Origin: Verrucomicrobiota bacterium
Lineage (GTDB): Bacteria; Verrucomicrobiota; Verrucomicrobiia; Limisphaerales; SIBE01
Length of the DNA stretch: 44,117 bases
Direction: 5' to 3'
NCBI GenBank assembly: GCA_016190065.1
Contig: JACPRI010000298.1
Coordinates: 1 to 44,117, forward strand
The notes under the pieces are model-generated. The model was not told the origin of the DNA, did not search any database, and saw only the letters and a list, made by a program, of their open reading frames with translations. Shown here in pieces: positions 6,883 through 44,117 of the stretch (position 1 is its first letter; each line of letters opens with the position of its first letter). The translations under genes and the position numbers were made by a program.

Positions 6883-7830
6883 ATGGTGAACTCAATCGAG
6901 ACCAGATTAAAGACGGGCGTGGTGCTGGGCGACGGCGGGTATCTCATCGAACTCGAACGGCGCGGGTACGTGGACAGCGGTTCCGGGCGCGAGAAGGTCG
7001 GCACGGGCAAGGGGAGCGGACAGTTCACGCCGGAAGTGGCGATCGAGCATCCGGACGCGCTGCGTGAATTGCACCGTGAATTCCTCGCGGCCGGTTCGCA
7101 CGTGTTGCAGGCTCTGACCTTCTTTGCCACGCGCGAGAAACTTACTCGTGCCGGGTACGGCGCGCAGACCGAAGCGATCAATCAGGCGGCGGTCAGAATT
7201 GCCAAAGAGGTCGCGGGCAACCAGGCGCTCGTGGCGGGGAGCGTTTCACGAACTCAACTTTTCGAGCGGGAAGGCCCGGCAGCGGCCGGTCACGCGCGGG
7301 ATCTTTTCGACGAACAAATCCGATTGCTCAAAGAGGCCGGCGTCGATTGCCTCATCCTCGAAACTTTTTTTCGCCTGGACGAAATGTTGATCGCGCTGGA
7401 CTGCGCAGCCCGGAGCGGCCTGGCGGTTGTGGCCACCATGAGCTTTCGCCCGATGATTACCAAGTGCAGTGATGATCATACGCCGGCCGAGTGCGCGCGC
7501 GCGATGGCCGAGCATGGCGCATGCGCAGTGGGCGCGAACTGCGAACAGGAGCCGTTGCGCATGCTTCCGCTGCTGCGCGCGATGCGATCGGCGGTGAATC
7601 TGCCGCTCGCGGCGCAACCGGCGGGCTTCCGCACGACGGACGCCTGCCATTGCTTCACGCGCCAGGCCGCGTTTCCGGACGACCTGGAGACCATTCAGGT
7701 GTCGCGGCGGGAGTTTTTTGACTTCGGCAAGCTCGCGAGCGCCGAAGGGATCGGTTACATCGGTGGCTGCTGCGGTTGCAATGCGGCTTACATCCGCGCC
7801 CTTGCGCACGGGTTGTCCGAGGCGAAATGA
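6883..7830 (+). CDS. Homocysteine S-methyltransferase (BHMT/MmuM-like) family protein
   Basis: LGDGG..ELERRG, LHREFL.AGS.V.QA.TF, GANC and Zn-binding IGGCCG. Confidence 0.9.
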   Translation: MVNSIETRLKTGVVLGDGGYLIELERRGYVDSGSGREKVGTGKGSGQFTPEVAIEHPDALRELHREFLAAGSHVLQALTFFATREKLTRAGYGAQTEAINQAAVRIAKEVAGNQALVAGSVSRTQLFEREGPAAAGHARDLFDEQIRLLKEAGVDCLILETFFRLDEMLIALDCAARSGLAVVATMSFRPMITKCSDDHTPAECARAMAEHGACAVGANCEQEPLRMLPLLRAMRSAVNLPLAAQPAGFRTTDACHCFTRQAAFPDDLETIQVSRREFFDFGKLASAEGIGYIGGCCGCNAAYIRALAHGLSEAK

Positions 7831-12911: not shown

Positions 12912-13137
12912 CATGAACCCACCTACCCCTTCACCCCTCCCAGGAGGGGAACATGCAATCGGCGCACGAAACGTGGCTCTCCTCCAGGGAGGGGAAGGGG
13001 TGGGTTCAGGGTCCGTGTGCGGTTCTTTTTGGAACAGGTGGCTACCCATGAACCGAACCCCTCATCCCGTCCTTCTCCCTCGCTGGTGGAGAAGCTGTCC
13101 GCAGGACGGTTGAGGGGGAGCGCGATCGGTTCATGGG
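12912..13137. repeat. Compound repeat: two palindromic units bounded by CCATGAACC / GGTTCA(T/G)GG
   Basis: CCATGAACCCACC..CCCCTCCCAGGAGGGG..GGGGTGGGTTCAGGG, then CCCATGAACCG..CCCTCATCCCGTCC..GGACGGTTGAGGG..CGGTTCATGGG. Confidence 0.8.
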
Positions 13138-13205
13138 CGCAATGAATTGCTGTTTGTTTTCCGCCAACGCTCCATTAAGCTGCCGCAGCAATTCGGGCGT
13201 TCGCG

Positions 13206-14273
13206 ATGAATCAGAATTCTTTTTCCTTTGGCATGCGGCACTTGTTGGCTGCCTTCGTTTGGCTGGGCGCAGTGACGAGCGCTTGGGCTCAGTCTTCGAC
13301 TGGTTACGTTGAGACCGGGGACGTGGCCCGAGAATTCACGCTCAAGAACCGCAAGACTGGAGAACCTCTCCGGTTGAGCGATTACGCGGGCAAGATTGTT
13401 GTGCTGGACCTCTTCGCGTATTGGTGAGGCGCTTGCCAGTTGCTCTCGCCGGTCGTCGAGAAAGAAATCAATAAATACTACAAAGCCAGGGAGGGGAATC
13501 CCGCCGGAATTCAGGTCGAAGTGCTGGGTGTCAACACCGACCAGACCAGTTCGGACAACACGGACGAATTCATCGGTGCCGTGGGCTTTGAGGTCGTGGC
13601 GGATGATCCGGACTGGGTGACGTATGGTCAATTCGGCCCCGGCGGCGCGGCGTCGCGTTACGTGATCATCAACGGTGTTGCGGACTCGCCGACGCACAAG
13701 CAGTGGGAAGTTCTGTTCAACGAAACGTTTTTCCAGCCTGGTGATGTCAGTCTCCTGCGTGCGCTGATCGACAAAGTCAAAACGCCCGTGCCCGCGCCGC
13801 CGAAGATTGCCGCGCAACCGCGGCCTCAAGAAGTGCTCCGAGGCGCAACCGTCATCCTCACTGTTTCCGCCACGGGCACGTCGCCGCTGTACTATCAATG
13901 GCACCGGAACGGCGTGCCCATTGCCGGCGCCACGGAGAAGTCACTCCTGCTGACCAACGTCAGTTTAGCCGACGCGGGCGAGTACTCAGCCACGGTCAGC
14001 AATCTCTTCGGCTCCGAAACGAGCCAGTCAGTTACGTTGAAGGTGACGGAGCCGCTTCGGCCTGTCCTTAGCGGCTTGTGGCGCCACGGCGACGGTGGCG
14101 TGGAATTTGTGATGAGCGGCGAGGCTGGCCGTGAATATCACATCGAATTCTCCACGGATTTAAGATTGTGGAAGCGCGTCGCAACGCTGCGCGCCAGCCA
14201 GGCGACTTCGATCTATCGGAATCCTGATACGGTCACAGAACCGCGAGGTTTCTTTCGCGCAGTAAGTGACTGA
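13206..14273 (+). CDS. Candidate selenoprotein: signal peptide + TlpA/redoxin domain (UGAC) + Ig-like domain + verrucomicrobial-type C-terminal domain; 355 aa, Sec at codon 74
   Basis: ORFs 13206-13427 and 13440-14273 are in one frame; LSDYAGKIVVLDLFAYW-TGA(13425-13427)-GACQ places TGA at the first Cys of CxxC; hairpin follows. Confidence 0.85.
13444..13461 (+). promoter_or_regulatory. Putative bacterial SECIS hairpin
   Basis: TCTCGCC-GGTC-GTCGAGA (6 pairs, one C/U mismatch); loop 23 nt after the UGA; identical in the paralogue. Confidence 0.75.
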
Positions 14274-14786
14274 GTTGGATCTAATCGCGAATCCACGCGG
14301 TGAAGTTGTTTGCACACCGCTTGCCTTCGCGATTTGAACGCAGGATTGCATGTGCAACAAAGTTTCTGGAATCCGAGAATGAGAGATCCTCGAACTCAAG
14401 ATGACGTGTTGTCCGGATCGAGGGTTGCACCGCGCTGGATTTGCCGATTTCGCTCATCATCGGTTGACCGGCATGATCCGAACAAAACCGCGTTTCGGCC
14501 TATGCCAGACGCTGTTTCCTCTGTGCTCTCCTGTTAAATTCAGCTCGGCGAGTTGGTGCTGGCGAAGAATCTCCTGGACCCATGCCGCATCGGACGCCGG
14601 AAGCGGCGGTTCGAGTTCGGAGCGGTAGCGGAGCAAGTGATAGCGTCCTTTTTCGTGGCAGTGATCGATCAGGGGTTGCAGCCTGGGATACCCAATCGCC
14701 AACCACGGAAAACCACCGGCGCCGTTATTCGGGGTTGTTTCCAGAGCGGAAACAGGTAGATTGTCGGCGGCTTGAGCGCCGAATTC

Positions 14787-15626
14787 ATGAAGCCAGTGGA
14801 CATTGCGAGATCCGAGCGAGGTTTTTCACCGGATGCCGGAAGGCGCTTTCTAGCTTTGTTTGTCTTGCTCCTGGCGTTCGCGCAGGTGACGCTCCCGGCT
14901 AAGGCCGCTTTCGTGCGTGTGGGGGAAATTGCCGCGGACCTTACGCTGAAAAAGCGCAAGACCGGCGAGGCCGTCAGCTTGAGGGATTTTGCCGGAAAGG
15001 TGATTTTCCTCGATCTCTTCGCGTATTGGTGAGGGTCCTGCCAATTGCTCTCGCCGGTCGTCGAGAAAGACATCAACGAATATTACAAGGCCCGGAACGG
15101 CACGTCGGCGGGCGTGGAGGTCGTCGTCATTGGCATCAACACGGACGTCACCAGCCAGGCGAATACGGACAATTTCATCCGGAACGTCGGCTTTGATTTG
15201 GTTCTGGATGATCCGGATTGGAAAAGCTACGCGCAGTTTGGCCCCGGCAATTCGGCGTCGCGCTACGTCATCATCAACGGCCTGGCCGACTCACCCAGCC
15301 ATAAGCAATGGGAAGTTCTTTTCAACCAGGTCTATTTTCAGCCGCGCCAGCCGGAAGTCGTCCGGGCCATCATCGAAAAGGTCAAGCCTCCCCCGGTTGC
15401 CGAACCGATTCGCCCCGTGCTCGGAGGCGTTCGGCGAATCGACTCCGGCGCGGTGGAGTTTGCGTTGAGCGGCGAAGTGGGCCGAAGATACCACGTGGAG
15501 TTTTCTACCGACCTGCGAAGTTGGACGCGCGTGGCCACGCTCACCGCCGGCGCGGAGAAAACCACTCACCGCGACGACCGCGCGGCTGCGGCGGCGCAAG
15601 GTTTTTATCGCGCCGTCAGTGAATAG
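14787..15626 (+). CDS. Candidate selenoprotein paralogue: signal peptide + redoxin (UGSC) + C-terminal domain, no Ig; 279 aa, Sec at codon 82
   Basis: LRDFAGKVIFLDLFAYW-TGA(15030-15032)-GSCQLLSPVVEK continues in frame into ORF 15045-15626. Confidence 0.85.
15049..15066 (+). promoter_or_regulatory. Putative bacterial SECIS hairpin
   Basis: TCTCGCC-GGTC-GTCGAGA; loop 23 nt after the UGA. Confidence 0.75.
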
Positions 15627-15630
15627 ACGG

Positions 15631-16671
15631 CTAGCGACCGCGCACTCGGATCGTAAAAGCATCCCGCGGGTTCATCACAAGCAACCCGCGAACCTCCTCG
15701 TCAGTGAAACCTTCCTTCTTCAGGGCAGGCATGAACGCGGTAAACAGCGGGTCAAACGGGCGAAAGTTTCCGCCCCCCGGTTCGCCCACGTGGTACCATC
15801 CCGCGTCGTGGGAAATGAGGACACGGTTCAGGAATCCGCGGTCGCGCAGCGTTCGGACGAATCTCACGTGCTGGTCGATGCTCTTGGGGGCGATCCCGTC
15901 AAACTCCACCCAGGCCCCGAGTTCGGCGGCTCTGGCGTGCAGGTCGGGATTGGATTCGCTTTGTGCGTGGACCCAAATGAACGCTTCGCTGCGCAAGCCT
16001 TCCTCCTGGATTACACGGAGTTCATCCAGCGCGGCGGCGCCGTTGCCCGTGTGGGCCGCGATGGTGAGCCCTGTTGCCCAGTGCGCGCGCGCCGCGGCTC
16101 GAACCAGTTTGCGATGAACTTCCGAGAGCGGCCCGGCATCGACGCCGATTTTCATGAAGCCGGGCCGAACGCCCGTGCCTTCAATTCCCTCTTTGGCCTC
16201 GCGAATCCAGCGCGCGGCAAGTTGATCCGCGGATTCTGTGAACGCGTGTTCCGGAAGATACTTGTTTTGCGCCGCGCCGTAATAACCCGTGTTCGTGAGC
16301 GCATTCAATCCAGTGGCGCGGGACAGGCGTTGCAGGAGCCTGGCATCGCGTCCGATGTAGGCCGGGGTGCATTCGACCAGTGTCTGACAACCAAGGTCGC
16401 GAATCCGCTGCAGATGCGGAAGCGCGACCTGGAAGACTTCGTCCGGCCGATAACGGGATTGGCTGATCTTCGCGGCGCCGATGAAATCGACCAGAACATG
16501 CTCGTGCGGCAATGTGATTCCAAGCTGGTCGGCACGAATCGGACCAAGAACAGTTTGAATCGCGCCTTGCGAAGGTACGGTCGGACGAGATCGACAAGAG
16601 CTGGCCTGGGCCACCAGACAACCAGTCCCGGCCAATGTGTCGCGAATGAATTCTCGACGTGTCGTGCTCAG
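15631..16671 (-). CDS. Phosphotriesterase-family (PTE/PHP) amidohydrolase, probably Tat-exported from a CTG start
   Basis: TVLGPI..LG.TL.HEH, LVECTP..IGRD, NTGYYGA, HTG, H, LISHDAG; upstream in-frame CTG-STTRREFI after AAGGA. Confidence 0.85.
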   Translation of the reverse strand: MSTTRREFIRDTLAGTGCLVAQASSCRSRPTVPSQGAIQTVLGPIRADQLGITLPHEHVLVDFIGAAKISQSRYRPDEVFQVALPHLQRIRDLGCQTLVECTPAYIGRDARLLQRLSRATGLNALTNTGYYGAAQNKYLPEHAFTESADQLAARWIREAKEGIEGTGVRPGFMKIGVDAGPLSEVHRKLVRAAARAHWATGLTIAAHTGNGAAALDELRVIQEEGLRSEAFIWVHAQSESNPDLHARAAELGAWVEFDGIAPKSIDQHVRFVRTLRDRGFLNRVLISHDAGWYHVGEPGGGNFRPFDPLFTAFMPALKKEGFTDEEVRGLLVMNPRDAFTIRVRGR

Positions 16672-16672
16672 T

Positions 16673-17542
16673 CTATTCCTTGGCCGCTTCGGCCTCCGCG
16701 ATCAGTTTCTCCAATTCCTCGTCCAATACTTCTCCGCCAGGAGAGCCGAGGTGCTGATGCCGAATGACGCCCTTGTGATCGATGAGGAACAGTGTCGGCC
16801 ATCCGCGAATGCCCCAGGCCTGGGCAATCGGACCGCCGGTGCTCCCTCCGTCCCACCACGAGCGCCAGGTGATGTTCTCTTGCTCCAGAACCTTCCGCAG
16901 CCGTTCCTTCGGGTCGCTGTTGACGCCCAGCAGGACAAACGGGCGGCCTTCCAACCGCTTCACGAGCGACCGCTCGTGCGGGTACATGGCCCGGCAAGGC
17001 CCTCACCAATCCCCCCAGAAATCCACCAGGATAACTTTGCCGCGATAATCGCTGAGCGTAAACTCCTTTCCGTCCACGTCTTCGCCTTCGATTTCCGGGG
17101 CGGCTTGGCCCAGTACGAACTTCTCTTTGGCTGAGGCCGCCGCCGTGATAGCTTTGATTTCCCCGCGAACCAACTCGACGATCTGCGGCGTGGAGTTTTC
17201 GCGGTCGGGCGAGAGCATGGTCAGACGAATGACCGAGCCTTTCGGGCCACGAATCATTTGCACGACCTTGCTCATGTCGAGTCCCGCGGTCTTGACGGCC
17301 GGTTGGTCACCCTGAGCGATGGCAATGATGCGGTCGTTGGCCTTGATCTTGCCGCTCAGTGCCGCCGGTCCGCCGGACAACACCTGCTTCACCACAATAC
17401 CATCGCCCTCTTTGTTCAAGGCGACTCCGATTCCTGCAACGTCCTGTCCGAGGCATTTCACCCCGGCCACAAGGCAAAACATCAGCATGAAAGCGGCGGT
17501 TCCGATGCACGTCTCGCCAGTTCTCAGAAGAATGGATTTCAT
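16673..17542 (-). CDS. Candidate selenoprotein: signal peptide + PDZ domain + TlpA/redoxin (UGPC); 289 aa, Sec at codon 180
   Basis: GIGVAL..PDZ..IRGPKGS; APEIEGEDVDG..LSDYRGKVILVDFWGDW-TGA(17005-17003)-GPCRAMYPHE..WPTLFLIDHKG in frame; AAGGA RBS before ATG 17542. Confidence 0.88.
16961..16978 (-). promoter_or_regulatory. Putative bacterial SECIS hairpin
   Basis: Perfect 7-bp stem CACGAGC-GGTC-GCTCGTG; loop 31 nt after the UGA. Confidence 0.78.
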
Positions 17543-17800
17543 ATGTTTCCTTAGTGAGTTATTTGCGACCTGGAGGCTCATGCCGGAAGGTAGCACAGAA
17601 TGATCGCGGCCAGGAAGAGGAATTGGCTTAGCTCTGAAGATGGACATCCGTGAAAACGATCATCCGGTCTGGAGTGGCCGATTCGGAGTCCAAGCGCGTC
17701 CCTGAAAACGCAGCCGTTCACGCCGGTCGGCGCCAGCATCCAGTGTCGAAACCGGGAAGTTCGCCTGTTGAGATCGACGCGGTTCAATCGCGCCGTTGCT

Positions 17801-35929: not shown

Positions 35930-38900
35930 ATGACATTCCTCACACTGATTGACTTCACCAGCGGGCTGCTCCGGGTGTCGTTACAGGCCTCGGTTGTGAT
36001 CGGGCTGGTTTTGCTGGCGCAATGGTTGTTCCGGAACAAGCTTTCGCCCCGGTGGCGGTATGCGTTATGGATGGTGGTGTTGCTTCGCCTGGCGTTGCCG
36101 GTTTTGCCAGGGAGTCCGTTCAGCATTTTCAATTATACCCAAGGCGTGGGCATGTTCGCCCGCCGCACCGACGCCTCCGGGGGTGCGCGGCCCGAATTGT
36201 CCGTTCCTGCTCCAACGCCATCCATCCCCGCTCTGACTCCCGCGACGGATGAACGGCTCGCAAACACTTCGAGCCGTGACACGGGTTCCAGGAACCTCGA
36301 TCCAGGCGCGTTGACCGGGGCGAGCGCAGGAACCGCGGCGGGAGAGGAAAAATCGGCGGACCTGGCTGTCCCCGCTGCAAAGCGCTCACGCTCCACGCTC
36401 CCCACGCTCCACGTGTTCCTCTCCTCGCTCTGGCTGACCGGCGTTCTGTTACTGGCCGCACGAATTCTCTCATACCCGAGGCGGCTCAACGCGCAATTGG
36501 CGCAGCACGAGTCGCCGACCCCGCCGGCGCTCTTCGAGGTATTGGAAGAGTCCAAGCGCCTCATCGGGGTCAAGCAGGTGCTGCCAATCGTGCAAAGCGG
36601 CGCGGTGAAAAGTCCGGCATTGCTGGGCTTCATTCGGCCCTGGCTGCTGTTGCCGGAAGGCATGGCGGACCGATTCACGCCGCAGGAATTGCGCCTGGTG
36701 TTCTTGCATGAGTTGGCCCATCTGAAACGCCGCGACATCGCGGTCAACTGGCTGATGACGCTCCTGCAAATCTTGCACTGGTTCAATCCGCTCATCTGGT
36801 TCGCATTTGCCCGCATGCGCGCCGACCGCGAATTGGCCTGCGATGAACTGGCGCTGTCGCACGCACCCGAAGCCGATCGTCAGCCTTACGGGGAGGCCAT
36901 GATCAAACTGTTGGAAAGTTTCACACGCCCCGCGGCCGTCGCCGGCCTGGTGGGCATCCTCGAAGACAAACAACAAATGAAACGGAGAATTGGTATGATA
37001 GCACGGTTTGATGGAGCAATCCGTTGGTCCGCCGTGATTCCTCTTGGGCTGGCGCTCTTACTGGGAATCGTCGGCTTGACGGATGCTCAAACGGATGAGC
37101 AGCGGAAAGACGCGACACCGGAAAAGCCGGTTTCAGCGGTAGTGGTCCGACAAGTTTGGGCGCCAGCCCAGGCTACCGGCGGTACCATCAGCTCGCACGG
37201 GCGCTATCTCTCCTTTTCGGATCCGGAGTCGGGCGACGTGGCCGTTCGAGACTTGACCACGGGAAAGAACCGACGACTCACCGGCAAGGGGTCGTGGGAC
37301 AAATCAAACGAGTTTGCTGACGAAACAGTATTTGCACCTGACGGAAAACGGCTGGCGTATTCATGGTACGACGGCCAGAAATTCTTCGAGTTGCGCACTA
37401 TTTCCCTTGATGATCCCCAACCGCGTGTCCTCGCCAAGGACAACTCGTTTGATGTCTGGGACTGGTCGCCGGACGGCAAGAGCATCCTCGCCACGAGTTG
37501 GGGAGACTATCAAACAAAAGGTAGCCAGTTACTTCTAGTAACCGCTGAGGACGGTGCTATGCGGATGATCAAGTCATTTCGTGGCTCCGGACCCTGGAAT
37601 GCCAAGTTCTCGCCGGACGGGCGTTTTCTAGCGGTTTCCTACAGAAATGATAAATCGGTGGATATTGCGCTCCTCAATATGGAGAACGGGACCGAGCTGC
37701 CGCTCGTGCAGCATCCGGCTGAGGATTTAGTCGTCGGTTGGACTCCGGACGGGGCAAGCGTTTTATTCGTGAGCAATCGGCGCGGGGCGAAGGATCTCTG
37801 GAGCATTGACGTTGAGGAAGGCAGAGCCAAAGGACTCCCGGTTCTGCTAAAGGCGGACTTCGGCGATGTCCATGTTCTTGGGATATCTCAACAGGGCCAG
37901 TTGTGGTACGGCGTCTCGCGGAACTCCGACAACGCAATGGCGGTTCTGGAAATCGATTTCCCAACCGGGAAAGCAAGATCAGGCTTGCGTCAAATCGCGC
38001 ATCCAGCCAACCACTTTCTGCGTGGAATGGCCTTGTCGCCGAATGGGCGCTATTTGGCATTTGCGGCGACCGAGACGCGCAGCGGACCTCCAAAGCAAAA
38101 ATTGTTCGTTCTCGACTTGGAGACCCGCATTCAGCGGGAGGTGACCAACCAAGTTCACCTGGGACGCTGGCTCGCGGACAATCGAACAATCTTTCGAAGA
38201 ATTGGTGCGCCTGGCAAACGCGAGGAACTTTCGTTGCTCGACACCGAGAAGGGTGAAGTCACAGAACTCGGAGGCGACGAGCACGGACCCTGGCCAGGGA
38301 TCGGACGGACGGGTAATTTCATGTTCAATTCCACCGAGCAAGCCCTTCTTTACGTGTGCTGGAGTTCCAAACGGCAAGCCTTTATGGCAAAACGCCGTGA
38401 TCTCCGAACCGGTGACACGATCGAAACCGTCGTAGCAACCGCGCCGGAACCTGACACAGAATACAGTTTTGACATCACCAGCGACCTGAAATCTGTGTTC
38501 TACTCCGCAAACCCAAAGGAAAAATCGTCCGAACGCCCCAGCCGGATATTCCGCTGCGTTCTTGAAACAGAGACGACGGTCGAATGGATGCGTTCCACGA
38601 ATTATCTCAACGCATTCCCTTCGCCAAATCCTTCGCGAATCGCCGTTGCAGAAGCGCCGACCTATTGGGAACGAAACATACGGCTCTACTCTCTGGAAGC
38701 GAATCCTCCCCGGGAACTCTGGACCGCGCATGTGCCACCTCCAGTGGTAGTTTACGGTTGGACTCCGGATGGACAGTATTTGATCTGCCGGGGGCCGGGG
38801 ACGGATGACCACGCTGCAAAGATTGATCCAAATCCGATAACTTTGGTTTCGGCCTCAGGACAGGTAACAAGAACCGACGTCAAGATTCCCCAAATGGGCT

Positions 38901-39019
38901 ATATCGCTGCAGTCCACCCGCACGCTGGCCAAATCTTCATGATACTCCGCGAGCCGCCGGTCCGGGAAATATGGGTCATGGAAAACTTTCTGCCTAAAGG
39001 CAAAATGGCGGCGAAGTGA
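35930..39019 (+). CDS. BlaR1-type M56 metallopeptidase fused to an extracytoplasmic TolB-like beta-propeller sensor
   Basis: SPALLGF..P.LLLP, HELAH.KR.D, HWFNP..W, DRELACD; then repeated (W/F)(S/T)PDG blades; ends WVMENFLPKGKMAAK. Confidence 0.92.
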   Translation: MTFLTLIDFTSGLLRVSLQASVVIGLVLLAQWLFRNKLSPRWRYALWMVVLLRLALPVLPGSPFSIFNYTQGVGMFARRTDASGGARPELSVPAPTPSIPALTPATDERLANTSSRDTGSRNLDPGALTGASAGTAAGEEKSADLAVPAAKRSRSTLPTLHVFLSSLWLTGVLLLAARILSYPRRLNAQLAQHESPTPPALFEVLEESKRLIGVKQVLPIVQSGAVKSPALLGFIRPWLLLPEGMADRFTPQELRLVFLHELAHLKRRDIAVNWLMTLLQILHWFNPLIWFAFARMRADRELACDELALSHAPEADRQPYGEAMIKLLESFTRPAAVAGLVGILEDKQQMKRRIGMIARFDGAIRWSAVIPLGLALLLGIVGLTDAQTDEQRKDATPEKPVSAVVVRQVWAPAQATGGTISSHGRYLSFSDPESGDVAVRDLTTGKNRRLTGKGSWDKSNEFADETVFAPDGKRLAYSWYDGQKFFELRTISLDDPQPRVLAKDNSFDVWDWSPDGKSILATSWGDYQTKGSQLLLVTAEDGAMRMIKSFRGSGPWNAKFSPDGRFLAVSYRNDKSVDIALLNMENGTELPLVQHPAEDLVVGWTPDGASVLFVSNRRGAKDLWSIDVEEGRAKGLPVLLKADFGDVHVLGISQQGQLWYGVSRNSDNAMAVLEIDFPTGKARSGLRQIAHPANHFLRGMALSPNGRYLAFAATETRSGPPKQKLFVLDLETRIQREVTNQVHLGRWLADNRTIFRRIGAPGKREELSLLDTEKGEVTELGGDEHGPWPGIGRTGNFMFNSTEQALLYVCWSSKRQAFMAKRRDLRTGDTIETVVATAPEPDTEYSFDITSDLKSVFYSANPKEKSSERPSRIFRCVLETETTVEWMRSTNYLNAFPSPNPSRIAVAEAPTYWERNIRLYSLEANPPRELWTAHVPPPVVVYGWTPDGQYLICRGPGTDDHAAKIDPNPITLVSASGQVTRTDVKIPQMGYIAAVHPHAGQIFMILREPPVREIWVMENFLPKGKMAAK

Positions 39020-41787: not shown

Positions 41788-44117
41788 TCATGGAGACTCT
41801 GAATGCCGTTTTCGCTTGGCTGCTGCGCACCTCCTGGCAGGCGTCGGTGCTGGCCGGTCTGGTGCTGCTGGTCCAATGGCTGTTCCGCAACAAGCTCTCG
41901 CCGGGTTGGCGCTTTGCCTTGTGAAGATTGCAAACAGTGCATGAACCTGCGGACACCCCTCACGGTCATCGAGACACCCGAAGTGAAAAGCCCGGCCCTC
42001 TATGGGTTCGTCCGGCCCCGGCTGGTTCTGCCGCAAGGGACGCTCGCGGCCTTCACTCGGCAGGAGTTGCATTACATCTTTCTGCACGAGCTGGCCCACG
42101 TGAAACGCTGTGACATGGCCGTGAACTGGCTGATCAGCGGCCTGCGCGTGCTCCACTGGTTCAATCCGATCCTCTGGTTTGGTTTCCGGCGTATGGCGGC
42201 CGACCGGGAAGTGGCCGCCGATGCTTTGGCCCTGTCGCGCGCGCCCGATGGCGACCCGCAGCCTTATGGACAAACCATCATCAAACTTTTGGAAAGCTTT
42301 ACCCGCCCGGCCGTGCTGCCGGGTTTGGTCGGAATTTTGGAAGACAAACAACAAATGAAAAGGAGAATTGCTATGATCGCAAATTCAAAAAAACTGCGCC
42401 GTGGCCCGCCTTGGCACCCGTGCTTTTGCTGGCGCTGGGTTTGGTCAGTCTGACCGACGCACAAACGAAGAACGCGGAGTCCAAGAGCGACGCCACCAAA
42501 ACCGCTGAGCATTCCGCGGCAACATTGGCGGGCCCAACACTTCGGCAACTTCAGTTGCCGGAGGATTTCAACTTTCAAGAAGGCGGCGTGTCGCCGGATG
42601 GACGTTACTTCGTTGGAGAGAACTGGCCATCAATGCGGCCAGAAATTCCAATCTTATCCGTGCTTGAGCTTGCCACGGGCACCCAACGACACATCGGCAC
42701 AAATCTCCTTGGGGGCATTTTCTCGCCCGACGGGAAACAAGTCGTAAGCGTGCCGTTGGCAACGAAGCGGCCTCCCAATGAACTTGCGCTCGTTAATGTT
42801 GAAACCAGTGAGCGACGCTCGTTTTACCGGAACGAGAACCTCAAGTCGATCTGGCCGATGGATTGGTCGCCGGATGGTCGGTCGGTTCTCACTCAGCTTT
42901 TGAAAAAAGACGGGACCTGGCAAATTGGATTACTCTCCGCAACCGAGATGTGTATGTCGCCGAGCTTGACCCCGGTTCTGGGAAGGTTACGGGAACACCC
43001 ACAAAACTGAGCGAACGCTTCGAAGGTCACAACCAGATGCCAGACTGGTCGCCCGATGGACGGTTTATCGCATATATCTCGATGCGCGGAGCAGACCAGT
43101 CTTACGGCGTACTCTGCATCCGTGATATGGAATCCGGCACGGAGCGAGATGTGCAGTCCGACACCGGTCCCGTGGCTCATCCGCGCTGGTCGCCTGATGG
43201 GCGATATGTTTTTGCGCGGGGCTACAGCCAGGGCCGAGCCACGCTGCTTCGTATCGACGTGCAGTCGGGCAAATCAACCCTCGTGCTCCGCGAATCCGCG
43301 CTGAACTATGCCCCCAGCCCTTTCGAGTTGGCCGCAGACGGAAAGTCGTTCTACTACCAGCCCGCCTCCCTGAAGGGATTCAGTAACCTCGGCTCGCCAA
43401 TAGTTCGCCATGATATGGAATCGGGTGCGGAGACGCGAATCCACCCCGCAACCAATTCCTGGATGGCACCGTGGGCGCCATCGCCGGACGGCAAATCGAT
43501 TGCTTTTCGCGGTGCCTGGGGAAAACGGAGCTTTGACGAAACATTCGATCTCAACGTGATCTCGACAAGTGGAGGCGAACCACGCGTGTTGCTAAAGGCT
43601 TCTGGAGTAAATCCTCGCTCAGCATTGGCTTGGACGCGCGACGGTCGTTATGTGCTGTTTGCCAAAAGGCTTGGTCCTGGCGCGAAGGTTTCTCTATTGC
43701 GTGTGCCGGCATCTGGCGGTGAACCGGAAAGCCTGGGCTTGGAAATGGAAGCCATTGGCGACCTGCGTGTCTCTCCGAACGGGCGCCAACTCGCATTCAT
43801 CGCCGGCCGACCCAATAACAAACTTCAAGTCTGGATCATGGAAAATTTTTTGCCGGCCAAACAGTCCGCCGCGCGCGAAGCGGGGGCCGAAGAGAGACCA
43901 GGCGAAAAGTCCGAGGCGTCTTCTCGAAAAAGCTCTGAGCCATCCGCGGCCAAAGCGGCAGGTTTAACGCTGCGGAAGCTGACTGAAGGAGGAACCACTT
44001 ACGGGAACAGCCATCCTTCCCCGGATGGACGTTACATCCTTATGCCCTGGCAAAATTCCATGGCGCTCCTCGATGTGACGACTGGAGAGCAACGCGAATT
44101 CGGACCGAATCTTGATG
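41784..44117 (+). pseudogene. Disrupted BlaR1-type M56 + beta-propeller gene, continuing past the window end
   Basis: Starts MIMETLN (ATGA overlap with blaI); deletion/frameshift at about 41922, -1 frameshift at about 42380, deletion/frameshift at about 42945; HELAHVKR.D retained; the last frame is open to 44117 and starts a second propeller after WIMENFLP. Confidence 0.85.

Follow-up and report, generated by a model that had tools for sequence, protein, structure and literature searches.

Three neighbouring genes of a Verrucomicrobiota bacterium with an in-frame UGA at the active site: probable exported TlpA/ResA-like selenoproteins

Introduction

Prokaryotic selenoprotein families that are known, or predicted with confidence, have been tabulated in a 2026 survey (Table 1 of PMC13188914). 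They include a Prx-like thiol:disulfide oxidoreductase (PF00578; UxxC or UxxU, where U is selenocysteine, Sec), a thiol:disulfide interchange protein, a thiol-disulfide isomerase-like/TlpA family (cd02966; UxxC), a UGC-containing TlpA family and a Trx7/PDZ protein (CxxU). Here we describe three neighbouring genes, g1, g2 and g3, on a 44,117-nt stretch of DNA from a Verrucomicrobiota bacterium (the window; contig JACPRI010000298.1 of assembly GCA_016190065.1), each of which is interrupted by a single in-frame TGA. An earlier note, made from the DNA alone, had proposed that they are selenoprotein genes missed by open reading frame (ORF) calling. We conclude that the three genes very probably encode full-length exported TlpA/ResA-like oxidoreductases, with Sec as the attacking residue of the W-C-x-x-C motif. 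Our confidence is higher for g3, and lower for g1 and g2, than for the three taken together.

According to one report (PMC4807772), it is chiefly Planctomycetes in which selenoproteins of the Planctomycetes–Verrucomicrobia–Chlamydiae (PVC) group have been recorded to date. The main texts of deep-Sep (PMC12013277) and BSepDB (PMC13326102) do not mention Verrucomicrobia, Planctomycetes, TlpA, PDZ or thiol, and the main text of a 2016 study in ISME J (PMC5029168) does not mention Verrucomicrobia or Planctomycetes; the supplements of these works may list such genes. Bacterial Sec insertion sequences (bSECIS) are described by a consensus with a loop of 3-9 nt carrying G at position 1 or 2, a stem of 4-16 bp, a distance of 16-37 nt from the UGA, and a minimum free energy of <= -7.5 kcal/mol (PMC13188914).

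Results and discussion

Three redoxin genes with UGA at an active-site codon

The window belongs to contig C234 of a 5.56-Mb genome in 472 contigs, with 59% G+C, 68% completeness and 2.3% contamination. Re-reading of the DNA reproduced exactly the three TGA positions of the earlier note and its product lengths of 355, 279 and 289 aa (Table 1). In each gene the TGA stands where W-C-x-x-C has its first Cys, within a thioredoxin (Trx) fold like that of TlpA and ResA. The frames run on through the rest of the fold, as had been claimed, and matches to the Pfam families AhpC-TSA, Redoxin or Thioredoxin cross the TGA in all three cases. Scores against PF00578 were 34.4, 28.7 and 78.9 bits for g1, g2 and g3, respectively (cut-off 26). 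TGA also serves as an ordinary stop in the window: of 17 ORFs assigned to a Pfam family, 13 terminate with it, and so does g1.

Table 1. Coordinates of features in the window and of three further genes of the same genome. Sec assignments and export are predicted; U stands for a TGA read as Sec.
Feature	Position	Strand	Description
g1	13206..14273	+	355-aa exported TlpA/ResA-like selenoprotein, ...LFAYW-U-GACQ; own stop is TGA; order of parts (AF2 model and Pfam): N-terminal signal-like segment, Trx fold, immunoglobulin (Ig) domain, C-terminal β domain of ~70 aa
Sec codon of g1	13425..13427	+	Residue 74; context TAT TGG TGA GGC GCT TGC
Candidate bSECIS of g1	13444..13461	+	UCUCG(C)C-GGUC-G(U)CGAGA; 23 nt from UGA to loop
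Ig domain of g1	13797..14045	+	Residues 198-280; Pfam Ig_3 1.8e-11, I-set 1.1e-9
C-terminal β domain of g1	14052..14270	+	~70 aa; ends FFRAVSD; all-β in model
g2	14787..15626	+	279 aa from ATG 14787 (284 aa if TTG 14772), ...LFAYW-U-GSCQ; g1 paralogue without Ig domain, same C-terminal domain
Sec codon of g2	15030..15032	+	Context TAT TGG TGA GGG TCC TGC
Candidate bSECIS of g2	15049..15066	+	18 nt, same as in g1
C-terminal β domain of g2	15405-15623	+	Ending shared by g1 and g2: F[FY]RAVS[DE]
Phosphotriesterase (PTE)-family gene	15631..16635	-	Placed between g2 and g3, on the strand of g3 and 37 nt 3' of it; Pfam PTE 7.3e-55
g3	16673..17542	-	289-aa exported PDZ + TlpA/ResA-like selenoprotein, ...FWGDW-U-GPCR
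Trx-fold (AhpC-TSA/Redoxin) domain of g3	16736..17110	-	Residues 145-269; AhpC-TSA 4.1e-22, Redoxin 1.1e-18
bSECIS of g3	16961..16978	-	CACGAGC-GGUC-GCUCGUG; 7 bp, 4-nt loop, 31 nt after UGA; -10.5 kcal/mol (-15.0 with lower stem)
Sec codon of g3	17003..17005	-	Residue 180; context GAT TGG TGA GGG CCT TGC
PDZ domain of g3	17219..17434	-	Residues 37-108; Pfam PDZ 3.6e-10, PDZ_6 5.1e-7
C358 gene	C358:848-1282 (L064:228-1439)	-	404-aa TlpA-like, FWHRL-U-RT-U (UxxU), two UGAs
C270 gene	C270:17048-17344 (L063:249-545)	+	99-aa AhpD/CMD-like, C-E-P-U (CxxU)
C317 gene	C317:4159-5292 (L062:19-1152)	-	378-aa exported protein, TGHC-U-GNATSVRGGPLS

The products of g1 and g2 are paralogues with 60% identity. 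The assignment of g3 to a different subfamily was borne out, as only 61 residues around the active site align with g1 (36% identity) and a PDZ domain is present instead of the Ig domain. The AlphaFold model of g1 (mean predicted local distance difference test score 83.7) contains a continuous TlpA/DsbE-type Trx domain, followed by the Ig domain and a second β domain. Foldseek matched this model to DsbE (3gl3_C; TM-score 0.80, root-mean-square deviation (rmsd) 2.4), to the Bacillus thiol-disulfide oxidoreductase 4nmu and to Ig structures. In the alignment, the Ig domain is missing from g2 and from the homologue L019. As judged by eye only, a hydrophobic signal-like segment stands at the N-terminus of all three proteins.

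The C-terminal β domain of g1 and g2 matched no Pfam or NCBIfam family above cut-off. It lies at most 3 residues from the stop codon in 7 of 7 significant matches in the same genome, which include ORFs of up to 1082 aa. Surface proteins of Verrucomicrobiota may use this domain for sorting or anchoring, which would put the selenoenzyme on the cell surface.

The claim that these genes were missed by ORF calling proved right: public gene calls truncate them. For the g3 of the window, the protein collection has just a 179-aa fragment, which stops at the UGA and ends in ...FWGDW; an orthologue at NCBI is entered as a 'PDZ domain-containing protein' of 175 aa. Such truncation leads to an underestimate of domain content, of redox capacity and of dependence on selenium in these bacteria, which are abundant in soil and groundwater.

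Comparison with described proteins

Like the PF00578 Prx-like and cd02966 TlpA selenoproteins, the three products combine an AhpC-TSA/Redoxin Trx fold above the Pfam cut-offs with predicted Sec at the first Cys of UxxC, a bSECIS just downstream (a candidate one in g1 and g2) and abundant Cys homologues. They differ from these families, as described in the survey, in their PDZ-TlpA and TlpA-Ig-C-terminal β architectures and in their Pedosphaerales/Limisphaerales-type lineage; the comparison is with the families as described there, and the supplementary tables may list such genes. Because UxxC families of the TlpA and Prx-like type are already catalogued (PMC13188914), the kind of selenoprotein is known, and what is new is these subfamilies, their architectures and the lineage. 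The genes would add exported PDZ- and Ig-bearing Sec redoxins to the PVC group, and leave the understanding of Sec decoding unchanged.

By score, the nearest curated selenoprotein model is NF041054 (ResA-like WAxxUGC), which shares the ResA-like fold and the placement of Sec in the active-site loop. Its scores were 16.7 bits for g1 and 40.1 bits for g3, against a cut-off of 300, and g2 was not among its matches; moreover, its Sec stands at the second redox position (W-A-x-x-U), whereas that of g1, g2 and g3 stands at the first (W-U-x-x-C). NF041199 (Trx7/PDZ, CxxU) was not among the NCBIfam matches of g3 at E <= 0.01, and the g3 motif is UxxC. Since NF041054 scores far below its cut-off and NF041199 is unmatched, the three proteins are TlpA-like but belong to no curated selenoprotein model.

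The best general matches of g3 are Cys-type proteins of the TlpA/ResA/DsbE (CcmG) kind (ResA 71.5 bits, TlpA 64.9 bits), with which the W-C-x-x-C geometry is shared. These scores fall below the equivalog cut-offs of ResA NF002854 (170) and TlpA NF047696 (230), and those of g1 and g2 are lower still, so the three proteins are not ResA or TlpA orthologues. The Cys-type proteins have Cys where g1, g2 and g3 have Sec, and the PDZ, Ig and C-terminal domains are extra to g1, g2 and g3. The exported C-terminal part of Mycobacterium tuberculosis DipZ (5cyy, 2hyx) likewise has a β-sandwich after a TlpA-like Trx domain, and the whole g1 model matched it with a Foldseek E-value of 8.6e-9. The domain orientations differ between the two, since the global superposition is poor (rmsd 29); in addition, g1 is without the DsbD membrane part and has Sec for Cys.

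Conservation of the UGA codon and selection downstream of it

Homologues were searched for in 61 genomes of the same order, and weaker g3 matches with TGA (E 1e-19 to 1e-24) were kept outside the counts. The best 23 matches of g3 (12 genomes, 49-71% identity) each contain exactly one TGA, including the orthologues at 65-71% identity, and the first match without TGA ranks 24th. For g1, 12 matches among those listed, from 9 genomes, each contain one TGA. All genes among these matches whose DNA was retrieved have the TGA as U in W-U-x-x-C (9 of 9 in the g1 family, with AYWUG[AS]C or [AT]WWUP[YF]C, and 13 of 13 in the g3 family, with GDWUGPC). The earlier note had considered three chance nonsense mutations implausible; the conservation of TGA at this column in relatives, across genus, family and order, excludes chance.

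A search for pairs of Cys and TGA at this column had also been suggested, and such pairs were found, with TGA recurring at the column and Cys in other lineages. At the g1 column, TGA is present in L012, L013, L014, L015, L016, L019 and L021. L017, L018 and L020 have Cys there; Cys forms within the order read AWWCGPC, AHWCGPC and AYWCGPC. A scan of named genomes yielded 26 loci, comprising 15 with FWG[DH]WU[GP]PC, 7 with FWGDWCxxC and 4 in which the scan found no motif. The 15 Sec-form loci are from Pedosphaera, Limisphaerales, Verrucomicrobiales, one Akkermansiaceae metagenome-assembled genome (MAG) and one Pirellulaceae. These loci overlap partly with the 61-genome set, and the combined collection holds 29 Sec-form g3 sequences, 24 of them distinct. 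Among full-length database proteins aligned with g3, 9 of 9 have Cys at the U column (e.g. FWGHWCGPCRAMYAHERSLV), and database Cys homologues reach 70% identity over the Trx domain (e.g. FWGHWCGPCRAMYAHERSLVKRLEGKPF). Two genomes have g3-like genes in tandem, each gene with one TGA, namely three at G030:C125 55337-58070 and two at G053:C70 11339-13062; G053 has five TGA-bearing g3-like genes in total.

Downstream of the UGA, nonsynonymous over synonymous divergence (dN/dS) was 0.068/0.627 for g1 (versus G002) and 0.274/1.534 for g2. For g3 it was 0.109/1.081 versus G001, 0.114/1.967 versus G012 and 0.159/1.497 versus G004. Together, the 8 pairwise codon comparisons (dN/dS ~0.1-0.2) indicate that the downstream frame is under purifying selection. 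Identity was higher 3' than 5' of the UGA in 6 of the 8 pairs.

The SECIS hairpin of g3

The hairpin downstream of the g3 UGA satisfies all four constraints of the bSECIS consensus and is unchanged in 14 of 16 aligned Sec forms. Within it, constraint on synonymous sites is striking: the Arg, Ser and Leu residues, for which six codons are available, use one codon each in 24 of 24 distinct sequences; nearby, equally conserved Gly, Pro and Ser residues of the family use 2-5 codons each. No hairpin of this type was seen in the Cys forms examined. The unvarying SECIS and clear Sec/Cys pairs of the g3 family, together with the co-occurrence of its TGA forms with selA (see below), make it a clean test case for selenoprotein predictors.

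Three further genes of the genome, on contigs C358, C270 and C317, likewise have a GGUC loop 3' of their predicted Sec codons. Its recurrence as the apical loop in five of the six Sec genes seen besides selD, and with a stem mismatch in g1 and g2, suggests a lineage-typical recognition loop for SelB. As in the SECIS of the Escherichia coli fdhF type, the hairpins lie in the coding sequence shortly past the UGA and have a small apical loop starting with G; the spacing here is 23-31 nt, and the stem sequences are unrelated. The loop of the E. coli fdhF SECIS also reads GGUC.

Sec machinery and proposed decoding

In agreement with the earlier note, which had reported no sel genes in the window, none was found among the 20 window ORFs scanned. 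The genome does have selA, selB, selD and a tRNA-Sec with anticodon UCA, for which the note had proposed a search; all are on contigs other than that of the window, within a binned MAG of 2.3% contamination. The tRNA-Sec on C149 was typed by aragorn and scored 65.6 bits against Rfam RF01852 (gathering score 47). It is the only UCA-anticodon tRNA that aragorn found in the whole genome; tRNA-Trp(cca) was also found. A second Rfam tRNA-Sec match, on C156, scored 50.8 bits, barely over the threshold, and was not accompanied by a second UCA tRNA in the aragorn results. Contig C141 carries both selB, which scored 321.8 bits against a cut-off of 242, and selA, which scored 479.6 bits against one of 268. 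The selD gene (369 bits) has a single in-frame TGA in ...SCAGUASK, so SelD is probably a selenoprotein itself.

Among the 61 genomes of the order, selA was detected in 27. It is present in 15 of the 16 genomes with TGA forms among the matches counted above, compared with 12 of the 45 others, and the exception, G012, is 60% complete. The association gave a Fisher p of 3e-6, a value that overstates its significance because of the relatedness of the genomes, which makes them non-independent. Two genomes from other families of the order have selA and a TGA-form homologue of g3 only 3-4 kb apart on one contig (G016:C4 163220-167799 and G037:C275 11508-17091).

By the established bacterial Sec pathway, SelA would convert Ser-tRNA(Sec) to Sec-tRNA with selenophosphate supplied by SelD. 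SelB-GTP carrying the Sec-tRNA(Sec, UCA) would then bind the coding-sequence hairpin 23-31 nt past the UGA and deliver Sec, so that termination would not occur. The residue inserted is thus predicted to be Sec rather than another, and the mature enzymes would be located in the periplasm or on the surface. By analogy with the Cys-containing TlpA, ResA and DsbE, they would cycle through a selenenylsulfide in U-x-x-C, probably acting as reductases or isomerases that receive electrons from a membrane transporter of the DsbD/CcdA type. The PDZ domain (g3), the Ig domain (g1) and the C-terminal β domain (g1 and g2) may serve in substrate binding or anchoring.

Weighing of the Sec interpretation against its alternatives

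The Sec interpretation put forward in the earlier note has strong support from the decoding machinery, the Sec/Cys pairs, dN/dS, the g3 SECIS, the co-occurrence with selA and the independently assembled contigs described below. Several observations weigh against it. The weakest link is the hairpin of g1 and g2, which at -4.2 kcal/mol misses the criterion of <= -7.5 kcal/mol, though its GGUC loop, its 23-nt spacing and its stem, of 5 bp and one more C-G pair beyond a C/U mismatch, fit the consensus. The 66 nt after the UGA fold no better than shuffled sequences (z +1.46 for g1 and +0.42 for g2). Sec insertion may be inefficient in these two genes, or may be directed by a different, unrecognised signal. 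For the g3 hairpin, covariation is nil, with double changes in 0 of 7 pairs, because the hairpin is invariant; in one divergent copy (the second gene of L029) RNAalifold left 3 pairs broken, and by eye these could be re-paired with a one-base bulge. A scan of positions 13000-17700 against Rfam at E <= 1 returned only a chance microRNA match and none to the hairpins. One of the weaker TGA-containing matches (G050:C81, in the tier of E 1e-19 to 1e-24) is in a genome in which selA was not detected. A search of the 68%-complete genome for the transmembrane domain of DsbD/CcdA, from which electrons would be expected to come, gave no match; the domain was found in 4 of 4 close relatives examined.

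The shortcomings of the g1/g2 hairpin, in both its stability and its folding relative to shuffles, are what speaks for partial or conditional recoding, in which g3 is a true selenoprotein and translation of g1 and g2 mostly terminates at the UGA, or in which Sec gives way to another residue, such as Cys supplied by the Sec machinery under selenium scarcity. Cys insertion, which the earlier note had raised as an alternative, occurs in other systems. We consider this explanation unlikely. A 26-nt element (13440-13465 in g1) is identical in g1, g2 and the orthologues of G001 and G002 (L012 and L013), as is the TGA, although the proportion of synonymous differences (pS) between g1 and g2 is 0.65; the probability of no synonymous change over these 8 codons is about 0.001. 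Purifying selection extends over 139-281 codons past the UGA. More distant TGA forms of the g1 family have other, stronger hairpins in the same place (-6.9 to -10.2 kcal/mol), in which the stem sequence differs between subfamilies and compensatory changes are seen in 3 of 5 predicted pairs.

It is very improbable that the three genes are decaying redoxin pseudogenes with independent nonsense mutations. In favour of this, gene callers stop at the TGA, and a screen for paralogues in the same genome returned mostly noise. Against this, the same codon is TGA in homologues from 12 (g3) and 9 (g1) related genomes, dN/dS past it is 0.1-0.2, a SECIS hairpin lies at the right distance, and TGA forms co-occur with selA. 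The pseudogene explanation was rejected as far as sequence data allow.

A sequencing or assembly error, with TGC or TGT as the true codon, had been named in the earlier note as a possible undoing of its proposal. Logan contigs from four public runs of two studies show no variant at any of the three TGA codons and agree at the codons they cover. One contig of X1, a possible source sample, spans 13206-15065; contigs of X3 cover 13206-13531 and 14819-15077, one of X4 covers 15005-15155, and one of X5, a hot-spring metagenome from a separate study, spans 16980-17208, all with 0 differences. The best-matching public runs are groundwater metagenomes, and the public runs listed include no RNA runs for the region. 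Genome-wide reassignment of UGA has in its favour only a report of UGA-to-Trp in some Verrucomicrobiota (PMC13462651). In this genome the presence of tRNA-Trp(cca), the typing of the lone UCA tRNA as tRNA-Sec, the alignment of the column to Cys rather than Trp, and the use of TGA as the terminator of most Pfam-supported window ORFs (13 of 17) all argue otherwise. Error and reassignment both appear scarcely credible and were likewise rejected within the reach of sequence data. Synthesis of two polypeptides, with re-initiation after the TGA, was rejected because the Trx fold would be split at its active site.

Other predicted Sec genes of the genome

In addition to g1, g2, g3 and selD, the genes on C358, C270 and C317 (Table 1) carry predicted Sec codons, giving at least 7 Sec genes in the 68%-complete genome. 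An organism with six or more selenoproteins has been termed selenoprotein-rich (PMC5029168). No Sec formate dehydrogenase was seen, since 0 of 5 molybdopterin-family matches in the genome contain TGA. A Sec/Cys screen of the genome against its own ORFs (527 filtered candidates) recovered only g3 and gave mostly spurious alternate-frame matches; it was not used for counting. A scan for hairpins with a GGTC loop gave 4 coding-like candidates, compared with 0-4 for four control loops, which is not significant; 3 of the 4 were Sec genes already found, and the fourth, C317, held up.

The C358 gene has a g3-type hairpin (CAUGAGC-GGUC-GCUCGUG) 31 and 22 nt past its two UGAs, and the C270 gene has the hairpin UCCAGC-GGUC-GCUGGA 19 nt past its UGA. 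The C317 hairpin has at least 7 bp around the GGUC loop (-13.0 kcal/mol). TGA stands at the same column in 10 of 10 homologues of C317, from 8 of the 61 relatives, and their hairpins show compensatory changes. The C317 protein matched no Pfam or NCBIfam family, and in its structural model the N-terminal domain resembles a Trx fold of the DsbH/DsbD-gamma type. Its near-length database relatives are 'hypothetical' fragments of 210-292 aa in 53 of 53 cases, and most of the 150 matches listed in a profile search begin directly after the U column. In the full-length relatives without TGA that were aligned, the residue at the U column is mostly Gly, Leu or Glu, and is Cys in one only; the preceding Cys is kept. 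C317 is a candidate for an unmodelled selenoprotein family of ~370 aa with the vicinal Cys-Sec site 'G-[HR]-C-U-[GA]', and this family looks more novel than g1, g2 and g3.

Several C317 relatives without TGA, including P0220, P0221 and P0227, appear by eye to be fused to an N-terminal region like an extracytoplasmic function (ECF) sigma factor, with a membrane segment. These fusions hint at a sensory role for the C317 domain.

We tentatively raise the possibility, which we hold to be somewhat less than even, that Pedosphaerales-type Verrucomicrobiota are an unrecognised selenoprotein-rich group, whose core would consist of exported Trx-fold redoxins with a lineage-typical GGUC-loop SECIS rather than formate dehydrogenase, and whose selenoproteins would be systematically truncated in public entries. 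If this were true, the selenoproteome of the lineage would so far comprise PDZ-TlpA, TlpA-Ig-C-terminal, UxxU TlpA-like, AhpD-like CxxU and ~370-aa C317-type families.

Gene neighbourhood

The earlier note had described the three genes as an island. They are indeed neighbours, but a conserved cluster was not found. The flanking and intervening genes are functionally unrelated, encoding a major facilitator superfamily (MFS) transporter, the PTE-family protein and a TPR/PD40 protein. Only the same-genus genome G001, where g2 is missing, repeats the order MFS-g1-PTE-g3-TPR/PD40; homologues of g1 and g3 are on separate contigs in G009 and G012. Because the order is limited to G001 and the genes are elsewhere on different contigs, the cluster is a local juxtaposition with tandem duplication and not a conserved module. 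The PTE gene also adjoins the g3 orthologue only in G001, and is regarded as a neighbour with no implied functional membership.

At 6883-7830 (+ strand), 5.4 kb upstream of g1, is a gene of the homocysteine S-methyltransferase family (Pfam 1.3e-46). Seleno-amino acids are methylated by some enzymes of this family; the position of the gene near g1 is probably a coincidence. Genes for BlaR1/peptidase M56 sensor-like proteins are located at 35930-39019 and 41803-42453 (+ strand), one of them fused to PD40 β-propeller repeats, and the window also encodes several TPR/PD40 and FG-GAP proteins.

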